Of a stretch of DNA of 5,185 nt, positions 1-5,185 are shown in pieces. Below the pieces are notes generated by a model. It was not told where the DNA came from. It was given only the letters and a program-made list of their open reading frames with translations, and did no database searches. Position 1 is the first letter of the stretch; every line of letters starts with the position of its first letter. Both the position numbers and the translations under genes were made by a program. The DNA is from Giardia intestinalis. Taxonomy: Eukaryota. The stretch lies in assembly GCA_000002435.2 (NCBI GenBank), contig AACB03000011.1. One strand, given 5' to 3'.

Positions 1-1373
1 ACACGGGGCGCTAGTGGTCATGCTTGGGCACCCTGCCCGCTGTCGGCTGCCCCACAGCGCGCGAACGGACCCCTGGGCCTGCGTGCCGAGCTGTCTCCCC
101 TGGTACTCCTCGCTCGCACCCGAGGCCTCTTGCCCCTATCATTCGGGTGTGCATCACGTCCAGACACGGTGCGATAGATGCCTAGCCGCGATGCCATACA
201 CACTCGACCAGGCCGGGCCAGGCCGGACGCCCCCCTGGATGGCCAGACACCCCGCCCTGCCTACGTTGGGCACTTCCTCGATGGGACTCGTCATCTGCCC
301 ACGCCGCAGCCCGGTGTTCGTCTGTCTGTCCTCCCGGGCAGCGGCGGTCCTTGGGTGCTGAGTCTGGCGAGCTGGTGCTGGGGGAAGAGGCTAGCCCCGT
401 GTGTCATTCGTACCATCGCACCGCGCCGTGCTGATCCCCCCATGGAACTGCCCGCCAGTGGCCGCCTCCGGTCCGGGGCGGCACAGCCCTGGCTCGGGCC
501 ATCCTCTGCTGCAGCGCCCCGGTGCCCCCTGGAGAGGATGGCCGGGTGCTATGTGCTACTGAGCCCTCGGGTGCATCGCTTCCCCACTGCCCCCCCTCAT
601 GTACCCACTCTGGGCGCCCCGGTACAGGGAACCTGGTCACTCTGGCCCTGGCCTCCAGGTGCTTGCCCTCCAATGGGCCATCCCTCATGCGCCTGTGTTT
701 GCCTGGCCCATTCTCCCCTGTCCTCTCTACCTCTCCTGCTCGGTCTCCGCTGGAGTCGCGGTGACGGCTGTTGACAGTCCCGGCCGGGCCCCCAGGTTTC
801 GCTCCATACCTGGGCCACATGCCTCCCACCAGCGCTGGCACCACATGGGTTGCTTGTCACAGATGGGACTGGCACGCACAGAAGAATATGGCTCCACGGC
901 GCTCTGCCGGTCTGTCCTGAGCTGGCGTCATCAGCCTGGACCCGCCCTTAGGGGGCCTCCTCCATCACCCGTGCCTCCCCACACCACCTCCTAAGCCGTC
1001 AGTCTGCTCTCTCAGGCGTGACCTTCTGTCGGCCTCCTGGGCCGTATGGGACCACCGCCCCGCTGCCCCCGCCATCTTGGCCAGACGCCTCCGGTGAGCC
1101 ACCATTCTGGAATAGCACGACACGTGTGGATGGGCTAGCTATGGCGCACGGTCCGCACCCTCCCTTCTCACGGACTCCCGGGGACAGTCCGGACGCGTCT
1201 CCCTTGTCCCCCGAATCGGTGGCCCCGGCCGATCCCCATCGTGCATCCTTATATGGGGCACTGCACACACCTGTCCACGCTGTCCCCTTGGGCCGGCCAC
1301 AGCTCACCCCGTGTGTCGATGGGCCAGAATTTGGGCTCCCCAAACCCCTCCACCCCCAAGCTGTTTCCTCGCC

Positions 1374-2140
1374 GGTTCTCTGGGCTCGCGCTTCCCTTTT
1401 TAGTGCAACAGCATTATGGTGCCTCGCGTATGTGCGCGGTGCAGTGGGCCGGTCTGTAGGCCTGCCTTTGACTGGAATCCTGGATCCCTGGGTTTCTGGC
1501 CCGACGCGTCGTCTTCTACCCCCAAACAGGCCTGCACTCTTCTTGGTCCACGGGCTATTTGTCTCTTTGTTTCCGCGGCCCAGGGCCTGCTGGTTGCGCC
1601 GGGGCGACGCTCATGGTGGATTTTATTTTTTCCAAAATCCAGAATTTGGGCCTGAAGACCGCCCCCGCAGGGCCTGGAGGATGCGGGGAATCGGTCCACC
1701 CACACCATGCGCTCGAGCAAAGGCCAAGCACCCACGCCATCACGTCTCATCCAGGACTCCTGCGCCGCCACGGAGGAGGATCGGCACCTTCGCCATCGAT
1801 CCTCCAGGATGCCCCCCTACCACTCCCCCTCACATGGCACGCCTCCCTCGGGCCTGTATGTCTGCATGCCGCTATGCCCTAACACCGCAGGCCGCCCTCT
1901 CCGCGGATCCACTAACACACAGCCTGCAGCGCCTGGCCCCCCTGGCCGTGACCCGCGCGCCCCCGCGCACAGGAGCATACCCCTGGAGCTGGGGAGAAGG
2001 CCCCCCTGGCCGCGCCCCCGCCGCGAGACCACGCGGGCACGGGGGCTGGGCGCCCCGGGCGGGCCCTTCCCCTCCGTCGTGAGGCTGCCTCCCCTCCAAT
2101 GTCCTTACCGCCTTGCGCGCATATTACGTAGTAAACCGCC
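1374..2140 (+). repeat. Tandem direct repeat, unit 1 (767 bp)
   Basis: Base-by-base comparison with 2148-2915 shows identity apart from one C-run length (C5 at ~1519-1523 against C6 in copy 2). Every six-frame ORF inside is duplicated at an offset of 774/775 bp, for example 1400-1771(-) against 2124-2546(-) and 1555-1743(-) against 2330-2518(-). No coding signal. Confidence 0.96.
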
Positions 2141-2147
2141 TCTGTCT

Positions 2148-2915
2148 GGTTCTCTGGGCTCGCGCTTCCCTTTTTAGTGCAACAGCATTATGGTGCCTCG
2201 CGTATGTGCGCGGTGCAGTGGGCCGGTCTGTAGGCCTGCCTTTGACTGGAATCCTGGATCCCTGGGTTTCTGGCCCGACGCGTCGTCTTCTACCCCCCAA
2301 ACAGGCCTGCACTCTTCTTGGTCCACGGGCTATTTGTCTCTTTGTTTCCGCGGCCCAGGGCCTGCTGGTTGCGCCGGGGCGACGCTCATGGTGGATTTTA
2401 TTTTTTCCAAAATCCAGAATTTGGGCCTGAAGACCGCCCCCGCAGGGCCTGGAGGATGCGGGGAATCGGTCCACCCACACCATGCGCTCGAGCAAAGGCC
2501 AAGCACCCACGCCATCACGTCTCATCCAGGACTCCTGCGCCGCCACGGAGGAGGATCGGCACCTTCGCCATCGATCCTCCAGGATGCCCCCCTACCACTC
2601 CCCCTCACATGGCACGCCTCCCTCGGGCCTGTATGTCTGCATGCCGCTATGCCCTAACACCGCAGGCCGCCCTCTCCGCGGATCCACTAACACACAGCCT
2701 GCAGCGCCTGGCCCCCCTGGCCGTGACCCGCGCGCCCCCGCGCACAGGAGCATACCCCTGGAGCTGGGGAGAAGGCCCCCCTGGCCGCGCCCCCGCCGCG
2801 AGACCACGCGGGCACGGGGGCTGGGCGCCCCGGGCGGGCCCTTCCCCTCCGTCGTGAGGCTGCCTCCCCTCCAATGTCCTTACCGCCTTGCGCGCATATT
2901 ACGTAGTAAACCGCC
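2148..2915 (+). repeat. Tandem direct repeat, unit 2 (768 bp), followed by the A15 tract
   Basis: Identical to unit 1 except one extra C at ~2294-2299. A 7-bp spacer tctgtct (2141-2147) separates the units. The unit ends gcgcgcatattacgtagtaaaccgcc, then cct plus A15. Confidence 0.96.
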
Positions 2916-2938
2916 CCTAAAAAAAAAAAAAAACCATG
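2890..2938 (+). promoter_or_regulatory. Candidate initiator region: AT-rich box (catattacgtagtaaa) plus A15 immediately upstream of the ORF ATG, leaving a near-zero 5' UTR
   Basis: This is the only strongly AT-rich stretch in a GC-rich context, and it ends 2 nt before the ATG at 2936. The same AT-rich box, without the A-run, closes repeat unit 1 at 2115-2140. A promoter role is inference only. Confidence 0.35.
2919..2933 (+). other. Perfect A15 tract, poly(A)-tail-like, at the 3' edge of repeat unit 2
   Basis: 15 consecutive A seen directly. It is absent at the equivalent position after unit 1, so it is not part of the repeat consensus. A retroelement ORF start follows 2 nt later. Confidence 0.93.
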
Positions 2939-3922
2939 CGTTCCGCCCTTTCCGCGCCTTCGGGAACCACGGAGATCGGGGCTTCCTCAGGCCCAGAGCC
3001 TCCCAACCACGCTCCAACCGACTCCCACAGGCCCCTACCTAGGGGCACTCCCGATCCTATGACGCTGGGTGACGGCAACGATGCCTCGACGACCGCCATG
3101 GCCCGGCCTTCCTCTTGCGAGCCCCTCTGCGGCTCCCACGGGCCCCCATCCCCCCAGCCTGGGCCTGGCAACAGCCGTTCCGCCACGGACAACTCTCCCA
3201 ATGAGTCTTCTCCTGTCCATGGCTTACAGGGCTCCGGGGCCTCGGTGGCCCGGGACGCCTCTCCTCCCTGCCTGTCGAACGACCTTCTGCCCTGTGGCCA
3301 GGAGCCCCTCCCGATTCCCGACGACGGCCTCCCATACGACCTGGGCCACGACAACTCCCCGTCCATCACGGACGAGCAGGAGGCCCGGGGCGCAGACCTG
3401 CCTGCTCCTGGGGGCCGTACGACTGTCTGCGAGCGCTGCGGAGAGGTGCTGCCTGACTCTGCGGCGATCGATGTCCACATCGGGATGCACCATCCGCCTC
3501 CCGGTTCACCTTCTCCGTCGCGCAGCCCTTCTCCGCTGTCGGGGTCTGCCCCTCCACCTGCAGCCGCCGAGCCCTCTCCCTCGCCAACGCCGGACCCTGT
3601 GTTCCCGTATGCATGCAGCATGTGCCGGGCCCGATACAAAACGGAGAGGGGGCTGAAGGCCCATATCGCCAGGCTCGGCCACTACCTCCCGCTCGACGCC
3701 ACAGTCCCCGAGCGCATCGGGGTGCCTAGTGGCAGCCCGTCCCCTGAGCTGCTTCGCCTCCTCACTGACGTATTCACAGAGATGGCGGGGCGCCTTCCTC
3801 CTGTAGAGGCCCTAGCGCGCTTCCTCTCGACGTGCCGCCGCATGGAGGGCTCTGGACGGCTCCCCCCGCGCAGTCGCTTCTCCGGAAGGGGCTGCTCGGC
3901 CGGGCATGGCAGGCGCTGTTGA
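2936..3922 (+). CDS. N-terminal ORF segment: Ser/Pro-rich region, two C2H2 zinc fingers and a linker. The true reading probably leaves this frame near 3860-3900.
   Basis: 328-aa ORF in the supplied track starting at ATG 2936. It contains VCERCGEVLPDSAAIDVHIGMHH and YACSMCRARYKTERGLKAHIARLGH. The downstream part, ELLRLLTDVFTEMAGRLPPVEALARFL, has protein-like composition. Confidence 0.7.
   Translation: MRSALSAPSGTTEIGASSGPEPPNHAPTDSHRPLPRGTPDPMTLGDGNDASTTAMARPSSCEPLCGSHGPPSPQPGPGNSRSATDNSPNESSPVHGLQGSGASVARDASPPCLSNDLLPCGQEPLPIPDDGLPYDLGHDNSPSITDEQEARGADLPAPGGRTTVCERCGEVLPDSAAIDVHIGMHHPPPGSPSPSRSPSPLSGSAPPPAAAEPSPSPTPDPVFPYACSMCRARYKTERGLKAHIARLGHYLPLDATVPERIGVPSGSPSPELLRLLTDVFTEMAGRLPPVEALARFLSTCRRMEGSGRLPPRSRFSGRGCSAGHGRRC
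3428..3493 (+). other. C2H2 zinc finger 1 (C-X2-C-X12-H-X3-H)
   Basis: Translated in frame 2: C ERC GEVLPDSAAIDV H IGM H. The spacing is canonical. Confidence 0.8.
3614..3682 (+). other. C2H2 zinc finger 2 (C-X2-C-X12-H-X5-H)
   Basis: Translated in frame 2: C SM C RARYKTERGLKA H IARLG H. It follows the aromatic residue (Y) two positions before the first Cys, as in classical fingers. Confidence 0.75.
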
Positions 3923-4104
3923 GCGAGACGTCCTCTGCCGCCAGGGTCCCCGAGCCCCAGGGCAAGGAGCGGGAAGCGATTGTCCATGAGCTCCACCCGC
4001 GCCCCATGCCTGTCTCTCTGCCCCCCGTCCATCACGTGCTCGGCCCGTCGCCCAAGATAACGGCCAAGGCGCTGCTGAAGGAGCTGCAGGCGATGAGGCC
4101 TGTC

Positions 4105-4332
4105 GCGGCCGGACCCTCTGGGCTGGGGAAGCCTCACCTCCTGCACCTTTGTGGGGCCGCCGGGGCTGCGGAGCTCTTCACCTCTGTCCTGACGACCCTC
4201 TTCTCCAGCAGGAACTGGGCCCAGCTCCAGCCCCTGTGCGAGTTCAGGCTGAAGCTTCTGCCCAAGTCTGGCGGCCGATGGCGCCCTATCGCAGTGCAGG
4301 AGACGCTTCTGGTCGCCTTCCACCGCTTGCTC
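4105..4332 (+). CDS. RT N-terminal fingers segment (frame 1): motifs 1 and 2
   Basis: AAGPSGLGK at 4105-4131 matches the RT motif PGPDGI. RPIAVQETLLVAFHRLL at 4282-4332 matches the R2/LINE motif RPISL......F..IL..RL. Confidence 0.8.
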
Positions 4333-4442
4333 CTGCGTCGGACTCCGCGCTCCGCAAGCTCCCGGCGTGGCAGCTGGCCTTTGAGCACCTCGCCCAGATG
4401 AAGGCGATCCGCGCGGCCGAGGAGCTGAAGAGGACACACCAC

Positions 4443-4481
4443 CTGCTCACGGTGGATGTGCGGAATGCCTTCAACAGCGTC
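4443..4481 (+). other. RT motif A (frame 0): LLTVDVRNAFNSV with the catalytic Asp
   Basis: Matches the consensus hhhhD..KAFD.V. The Asp codon gat is at 4455-4457. Confidence 0.8.
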
Positions 4482-4483
4482 CG

Positions 4484-4650
4484 CATTCCGTCATCCTCTT
4501 TGCGCTCCGCCGGGCAGGGGTGGTCCAGCCGACCGTCGCGTACATTGAGCGTTCCTCGCGGCTCGGCACTCCTCGGACCTCCCGCGGTCCCAGCGGGCGT
4601 GCACAGGGGACCCGCTGTCCATGGCGATGTTCTGCCAGAGCCTTGTTGGC
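4484..4650 (+). CDS. RT palm segment between motifs A and B', read across a frame 2 to frame 1 switch at the gggg run
   Basis: Frame 2 reads HSVILFALRRAGVVQPTVAYIERSSRLGT...GRAQG. Frame 1 reads GDPLSMAMFCQSLVG. The sequence shows caggggaccc where cagggggaccc would give in-frame QGDPLS. Confidence 0.75.
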
Positions 4651-4656
4651 CGGTGA

Positions 4657-4800
4657 GACGTACCTCGGCCAGTCAAGGTCGTTGCATACGCCGACGACCT
4701 CGTCATTGCGTCAGAGGAGGCGATTCCCATAGATACCGTGAAGAGTGACGCGCAGTTCGCCCTCTCCCGCATAGGGCTCACGGTCGAGCTCTCGAAGTGC
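4657..4800 (+). CDS. RT motif C segment (frame 1): VKVVAYADDLVIASEE...ALSRIGLTVELSK
   Basis: YADD at 4687-4698 is the catalytic YXDD box. The following GL.V.LSK resembles the post-YXDD G(L/M).LN..KS segment of R2-type RTs. An in-frame TGA lies immediately upstream at 4654-4656. Confidence 0.85.
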
Positions 4801-5185
4801 TCCTCGACCCAGGCCGGGCGATCTCCTTCATGGGCACCCGCGTGCTCAAGCACTCCTCCTTCAACCTCGCGCAGACATCGGCCCGCCGGCTCCACGAGCA
4901 TCTCGCCGTCCTCCGTGCTTCGGGTCTCTCACTCCACGACCGCCTCAGGCTCCTGTCTGCCTGCGTCGTCCCTGCAGTTAACTATGGACCCCTTGTTGAC
5001 GACTACCCGGCCCGTCCCCCTATGCCGACGTCGATGCGCAGATAGTGGAGGAGGTCGCGACCCTTCTGGAGATCCCCGAACCCCTTGCGAAGACCCTTGC
5101 TCTGACGCCCCGCGCGAAGTACGGCCTCGGACTGGTGCTGCCCATCACTACTACGACGAGATGCACAGGCAGCGCCAGGACATGA
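4797..5185 (+). CDS. RT motif E and thumb segments: frame 0 up to ~5010, then frame 2 to the window end
   Basis: Frame 0 reads VLLDPGRAISFMGTRVLKH...HDRLRLLSACVVPAVNYGPLVDD, which includes the F(L/M)G motif. Frame 2 reads YADVDAQIVEEVATLLEIPEPLAKTLALTPRAKYGLGLVLP, which matches the R2 thumb pattern LDVQI...V...L.LP...PK.....A...GGLAIP. Confidence 0.75.

Follow-up and report, generated by a model that had tools for sequence, protein, structure and literature searches.

The stretch of DNA analysed here (the window; 5,185 nt of Giardia intestinalis, contig AACB03000011.1 of assembly GCA_000002435.2) is, in our reading, the place where two copies of the non-LTR retrotransposon Genie 1 (a retrotransposon that lacks long terminal repeats), of the GilM type, meet head to tail. 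At this boundary the polyadenylation signal and the reverse-transcribed poly(A) tail of one copy would lie directly before the start codon of the next. We put the probability of this reading, the mechanism of signal and tail included, at about 0.82. The key feature is a junction in which an AT-rich box is followed by a run of 15 adenines (A15, 2919-2933), two cytosines (2934-2935) and the ATG at 2936 of an open reading frame (ORF) that leaves the window at 5185. All positions are those of the window and all features are on the plus strand unless stated otherwise.

A putative polyadenylation signal and tail at the junction

Two repeat units precede the A-run, the first at 1374-2143 (770 nt) and the second at 2148-2918 (771 nt). 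A single added C (2293) and a single T/C substitution (2141 vs 2916) set them apart. The same AT-rich box, gcgcgcatattacgtagtaaaccgcc, closes both of them, at 2115-2140 and 2890-2915. Behind the first box the sequence continues untailed through tctgtct (2141-2147, which extends the entry of this unit to 2147) into the second unit, and the boundary reads tct/gtct/ggttctc with no A-run. Behind the second box come cct, A15, cc and the ATG. The first-pass annotation had described just this layout, with the box at the end of both units and A15-cc-ATG after the second only, and the comparison bears it out. The units were recovered by a repeat search (find_repeats) and MAFFT comparison, and Tandem Repeats Finder gave no result since the period is over 500.

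The A-run is hardly a product of base composition. No other homopolymer in the window, which has 66% G+C, reaches 7 bases, and the chance expectation for such a run is ~1.5e-9 at 14.6% A. T2918 and the first two A's form an in-frame TAA, and hence the ORF cannot extend upstream and 2936 is its first possible start codon.

By its sequence, the box is the carrier of Giardia's ordinary polyadenylation signal. Box and spacer together cover 2890-2918, with the heptamer AGTAAAC at 2905-2911 and the spacer cgcccct at 2912-2918, and the A-run begins 14 nt past the first base of the signal. We searched the whole window on either strand and found AGTAAA only at 2130 and 2905, both inside the boxes, with 0.13 occurrences expected per strand. 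The consensus of the Giardia signal is AGT[A/G]AA[T/C], and the histone H4 and H3 genes have exactly AGTAAAC as theirs (PMC1872034). The motif is expected within fewer than 20 nt of the poly(A) addition site, and the genome-wide modal distance from AGURAA to the cleavage site is 13-15 nt (PMC9014877).

We take A15 for the poly(A) tail of the copy before it, retrotransposed along with that copy. The spacing between signal and A-run (14 nt here; 13, 15 and 15 nt in relatives) fits the genome-wide mode, and the length of the run varies among copies (15, at least 10, 9, 9 and 9), as expected of tails. The earlier view that the run is tail-derived and stands outside the repeat consensus is supported.

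The same junction in other copies

We compared the window with four further junctions, taken from three independent public assemblies that represent different samples and element families. Two of them are on one contig, L002 (ENA ERZ27287561, contig k141_210258), which is also a second piece of evidence for an array. They read ...ctAGTAAATacccct-A9-ccc-ATG, with 13 nt from the start of the signal to the A-run, and ...caAGTAAACttctctat-A9-ccc-ATG, with 15 nt. The junction in L003 reads ...ctAGTAAATaaccctcc-A9-cc-ATG, again with 15 nt, and the contig L004 (Logan run SRR30814697) starts with A10-ccc-ATG, so that its A-run is at least 10 long and the region upstream is outside the contig.

The features kept across the junctions are AGTAAAY (where the upstream sequence is present), the spacing, an A-run of variable length, cc or ccc, and the ATG. 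The two cytosines at 2934-2935 are the sole untranslated bases between tail and ATG in the window, and in all five junctions the ATG stands 2-3 nt past the A-run with no 5' untranslated region (5'UTR). A long conserved 5'UTR in other copies, which the first-pass annotation would have taken as a sign that the window copy is truncated, is found in none of them. The elements in L002 and L003 are well separated from that of the window, with ORFs that share only ~44-53% of their residues and ~70% of their DNA (68-71%) with it.

The palindrome TACGTA at 2900-2905, inside the second box, had been described as the core of the box. It is absent or altered in the relatives, being not conserved in the second junction of L002 and altered in L003 and in L001, the contig described next. 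We rejected it as the functional core in favour of AGTAAAY.

Two sites show how the sequence reads where the tail is missing. One is the boundary between units 1 and 2, AGTAAACcgcctctgtct, and the other is a solo site on the minus strand of an assemblage B contig, AGTAAATtactctgcct. Both continue with tctgYct (tctgtct after unit 1, tctgcct in L001) where the tailed copies carry the A-run. The solo site (L001; G. duodenalis assemblage B, AHHH01000176, ~1790-1930, minus strand) is a 3'-terminal block of ~130 nt ending AGTAAATTACTCTGCCT. It has no A-run or ORF behind it, and an A8 run and AT-rich DNA before it.

The preceding copy

The DNA upstream of the A-run had been regarded as flanking sequence. 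Our comparison assigns it instead to a preceding copy on the same strand, of which window 1-14 is the end of the ORF (its last 11 nt and a TAG stop at 12-14) and 15-2918 the 3' untranslated region (3'UTR). The assignment comes from a contig of Logan run SRR32206249 (L005), which is 95-97.6% identical to the window and has an intact ORF of 726 aa whose end, ...ACACGGGGCGCTAG, is the same as window 1-14. This contig bridges the two ends of the window: 4082-5185 corresponds to L005 1-1116 and 1-2034 to L005 2170-4227, and the stretch between the two matches is an intact ORF ending ...ACACGGGGCGC TAG. Since L005 links the right end of the window through the stop codon to its left end, we conclude that the copies are arranged in a head-to-tail array.

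The 3'UTR is 2904 nt long, or ~2.13 kb if one unit is counted. Its unique part, 15-1373, is collinear with L005 2184-3564 and with the matching part of L004 3339-5362, both of which are 3' of ORFs, and it has no significant similarity to the 771-nt unit. Unit 2 (2148-2918) is the 3'-terminal segment of the copy, up to the poly(A) addition site, and in the window's upstream copy this terminal segment of 771 nt is duplicated. With a single unit the reconstructed period of the array is ~5.46-5.50 kb, and L004 together with its missing 122 nt gives ~5.48 kb, close to the GilM unit of 5,474 bp in the WB reference genome (PMC7000408). The 2001 description, as summarised in a review (PMC5537684), speaks of arrays in one orientation, head-to-tail, with unusually long 3'UTRs. 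We found no (TAGGG)n telomere repeats in the window or in any fetched locus.

In the unique part of the 3'UTR the window lacks, at ~250, 23 bp (CCCGCCCTCCGAGGCATGACGGG) that are present in L005 2417-2439. In L006 (Logan SRR1957178_424, 1-330) a copy whose ORF is cut off at about residue 226 stands in unrelated AT-rich sequence, which shows that dispersed, 5'-truncated insertions exist outside the arrays. Neither L006 nor L007, both examined for additional junctions, contains one.

Identity of the element

The ORF at 2936-5185 is the 5' part of the single ORF of the downstream copy. It encodes C2H2 zinc fingers at 3428-3493 and 3614-3682 (Pfam zf-C2H2_4, 4.6e-6) and, after frameshift correction, a reverse transcriptase (RT; Pfam RVT_1, 7.5e-16) with the motifs RWRPIA from ~4276, YADD at 4687 and FMGT at 4827. 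The endonuclease part is beyond the end of the window and is found in L005 and in the ORF of L004. The latter is intact, 1112 aa long and 89% identical, and has the fingers, the RT, a CCHC motif and a PD..D..K motif, the last two recognised by eye in the translation downstream of the RT. Among solved structures its best match is the protein of the R2 retrotransposon (9nl2, E = 4e-10). The top protein matches of the window ORF are Giardia duodenalis proteins named 'reverse transcriptase/endonuclease', at 56-60% identity, and an exact-protein look-up with the ORF found no record.

Both published Genie1 primers (PMC1950533) match the window exactly and in convergent orientation, at 4191-4210 (plus) and 4491-4508 (minus), with 0 matches expected by chance. 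Because both primers match and the protein matches are Giardia reverse transcriptases, the element can be identified from its sequence as the Giardia non-LTR retrotransposon Genie 1 (Burke et al. 2002), GilM type. For the choice between GilM and GilT we used the length of the unit and secondary citations instead of full-length reference sequences. The first-pass annotation, which had pointed to Giardia by its short leaders, was right about the organism. A dead GilD/Genie 2 copy is not favoured, as the primers say Genie 1 and the indels of the ORF relative to L005 are all small deletions. Arkhipova and Morrison reportedly described GilM and GilT in 2001 as two telomere-associated families, of which Genie 1 is one, and Burke et al. 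are said to have used the names Genie 1/1A in 2002 for the GilM/GilT elements.

L001 also contains, at 8003-9830 and 10001-11749, a 5'-truncated Gil-type RT copy directly behind a second, degenerate RT of another family. The degenerate RT is 28-41% identical to the L004 ORF (tblastn) and is possibly GilD/Genie 2-like.

The frame of the ORF from 2936 is broken by several deletions of 1-2 nt. We aligned 4082-5185 with the 97.6% identical L005, and each of the 11 indels turned out to be a loss of 1-2 nt from the window, with about half of the losses falling in short runs of C or G. The small deletions span 4345-5141, and others are at 266, 721, 1519 and 1626. The frameshifts are likely to be assembly or long-read errors rather than marks of a decayed copy, judging by this pattern. 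For the same reason, all indels against L005 being small deletions and about half of them in C/G runs, the exact A-run length of 15 may be mis-called.

A conserved block at the 3' end

A G-rich block, GGGCACGGGGGCTGGGCGCCCCGGGCGGGCCCTTCCCCTCC..., is present at 2810-2860 and again at 2035-2085, and the alignment shows it to be almost invariant across the diverged element families. We found it also in L002 (90-135 and 2700-2745), L003 (1-45) and L001 (~1810-1870, minus strand). With its five sense-strand G-tracts, it is a potential G-quadruplex. The terminal ~110 nt of the 3'UTR are 83-94% identical between families vs 68-71% for the ORFs. Because its identity between families exceeds that of the ORFs, we regard the 3'-terminal region as a cis-element in its own right, perhaps an RT recognition site, a part of a promoter or a G-quadruplex. 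A conserved RNA helix in this block was considered and rejected as unsupported, with no covarying pairs found and a fold z-score of -0.87. A metagenome scan for the conserved 3' block together with AGTAAA gave 0 matches.

The two A9-ccc-ATG junctions of L002 (1-2936) are just 2629 bp apart. The unit of 2.6 kb between them retains the conserved 3' end and, from the ORF, the N-terminal part with the zinc fingers, but has no reverse transcriptase. This unit may be a non-autonomous, HeT-A-like array member that lacks an RT, or a metagenome mis-assembly.

Proposed mechanism and transcription start

The RNA of the upstream copy would be read through the first AGTAAAC and processed at the second, with cleavage and polyadenylation after ...cccct. 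Target-primed reverse transcription would then copy the RNA, tail included, beside an existing copy, so that the tail comes to abut the 5' end of the next copy.

Transcription of the downstream copy would most likely begin inside the A-run, a candidate AT-rich initiator, or at its end, and the leader would be a few nucleotides long. We favour this start because ribosomes in Giardia work without scanning and its promoters are short AT-rich initiators situated at the ATG. Giardia 5'UTRs measure 1-14 nt and its ribosomes work without scanning (PMC3610916), and A-triplets in a short AT-rich element beside the ATG serve as transcription starts (PMC1872034). A15 ends 2 nt before the ATG, and there is an AT-rich patch at -40 to -26, so that in sequence the region agrees with an AT-rich element spanning a candidate start within ~14 nt of the ATG. 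The box, ~25-40 nt upstream of the ATG, may act as a second, upstream element. For its expression each copy would then rely on its upstream neighbour's 3' end, as Drosophila HeT-A does.

That the junction of ~45 bp, i.e. the signal box plus the reverse-transcribed tail, is the only promoter of the next copy is a more specific proposal, and we offer it tentatively, as somewhat doubtful. Our literature search for an explicit statement of such a promoter role gave nothing useful. Arkhipova and Morrison (2001) are said to have drawn the HeT-A parallel and to have raised a part of the junction-promoter idea.

The GC-rich 3'UTR units have only one other AT-rich island, tggattttattttttccaaaatccagaatttggg, at 1616-1650 and 2391-2425. 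These islands are candidate internal or antisense start regions, since Giardia promoters are short and AT-rich and antisense RNAs have been reported from such elements.

Alternative readings

Several points weigh against the boundary of two copies with signal and tail as we propose it. We infer the transcription start and the promoter role of tail and box from the sequence, and they are probable at that level. The signal is not always efficient, as the AGTAAAC at 2130-2136 in unit 1 is identical to the second one and goes unused, continuing with the untailed tctgtct. The solo 3' block in L001 has the signal without an A-run. The junction is precise in all copies, and precise junctions fit site-specific insertion or recombinational expansion of an array better than addition to eroding chromosome ends. 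Finally, Burke et al. 2002, as paraphrased in PMC1950533, describe Genie 1 as site-specifically inserted in a chromosomal repeat, a description that reads the 771-nt unit in another way.

The junction might be a passive by-product, in which the A-run is the tail of the upstream copy and neither tail nor box has a promoter function. The copies would be silent, or transcribed by read-through or from elsewhere, and the array would grow by unequal recombination. The near identity of units and junctions within the window is compatible with recombinational homogenisation, and another AT-rich patch is on hand at 1616-1650 and 2391-2425. Without scanning, however, a read-through RNA with a leader of kilobases could not express the ORF (PMC3610916), and yet the ORFs of L004 and L005 are intact. 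Families with an ORF identity of only ~70% also keep the ATG 2-3 nt behind the A-run. The absence of scanning and this strict spacing speak for a start site at the junction. On this evidence we consider a purely passive junction unlikely.

It is less probable still, and in our view rather improbable, that the 771-nt units are a tandem repeat of the host chromosome into which the element, running from the A-run or ATG to 1373, is inserted at a fixed site, with the box as the target of its zinc fingers and endonuclease. This agrees with the summary of Burke et al. in PMC1950533. With its N-terminal fingers and restriction-like endonuclease the protein belongs with R2, whose class mostly inserts site-specifically; five of five copies have a junction that is precise to the base; and the tctgtct between units 1 and 2, like the similar tctgcct after the solo fragment in L001, could pass for an 'empty' boundary. 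But target-primed reverse transcription puts the tail at the 3' end of an insertion, and the boundary at 1373/1374 (cctcgcc/ggttctc), where the 3' end would be, is without an A-run, while the A-run at the 5' junction is left unexplained. It would also be a coincidence that the host's poly(A) signal stands 13-15 nt ahead of the A-runs, its canonical distance. In addition, the unit diverges between relatives like the rest of the element (86% vs 83-89%), and no element-free array of units was seen. The only 'target' observed in the junctions is the tail of another copy, and the truncated copy in L006 is in unrelated AT-rich DNA. The possible role of the box as the target of the endonuclease or zinc fingers, raised in the first-pass annotation too, finds no positive support in the sequences compared.

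An assembly artefact, with A-run and junction made by a mis-join or a repeat collapse, can practically be set aside: the many 1-nt deletions in the window are of the kind made by error-prone assembly, but the same architecture is found at four further junctions in three independent public assemblies.

Comparison with known systems

The architecture of the window is already known in outline, since the head-to-tail arrays and long 3'UTRs of the Gil elements were described in 2001-2002. The element shares with GilM/GilT (Genie 1/1A) both primers, the order of C2H2 fingers, RT and CCHC plus endonuclease, the arrays, the very long 3'UTR and a unit of ~5.47 kb with one terminal unit. It differs in nothing essential, the window copy having a duplicated 771-nt segment and frame-breaking 1-nt deletions that are probably sequence errors.

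Drosophila HeT-A and TART are likewise arranged in head-to-tail arrays with unusually long 3'UTRs. HeT-A has its promoter in the upstream neighbour's 3' end, the same logic as in the mechanism proposed here for tail and box. However, HeT-A and TART are Jockey-type elements with an apurinic/apyrimidinic (AP) endonuclease or none, whereas the Giardia element is R2-like with a restriction-like endonuclease. The Drosophila junctions show variable 5' truncation and the transcripts there carry an upstream tag, while the Giardia junction is base-precise and no tag was seen in it. Giardia also keeps telomerase repeats, unlike Drosophila.

With R2, CRE/SLACS and NeSL the element has in common the N-terminal zinc fingers, the RT and the C-terminal CCHC motif plus PD-(D/E)XK nuclease. 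A conserved 3'-terminal RNA segment, which could be a recognition site of the RT, is likewise shared. R2, which is co-transcribed with rRNA, lacks a poly(A) tail, whereas the Giardia element bears an apparent tail and would rely on the AGTAAA signal of its host, and no covariation-supported RNA structure was found at its 3' end.

The junction also resembles an ordinary Giardia mRNA, with AGTAAAC 13-15 nt before the tail and an A-rich tract directly before the ATG, as at mapped transcription starts. The difference is that one signal comes from one copy and the other from the next, joined in a junction of ~45 bp. The 3'UTR of the element, ~2.1-2.9 kb, is also far from the genomic median of 59-80 nt.

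Implications

The value of these results is mainly a correct annotation: the window is to be described as the inter-copy boundary of a known Giardia retrotransposon array and not as an insertion beside a host repeat. It also offers a clear example of a mobile element reusing the mRNA signals of its host, with a canonically spaced poly(A) signal and a putative AT-rich start region. If the junction is indeed the only promoter, an element would be expressible only directly behind another copy, and active copies would be confined to head-to-tail terminal arrays. RT-less derivatives that share the 3' end, such as the 2.6-kb unit of L002, could ride along, and we would have a HeT-A/TART-like system in a deep-branching protist. 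The tail serving as a promoter, if true, would explain why the active copies stay in arrays and would be an independent parallel to the 3' promoter of HeT-A.

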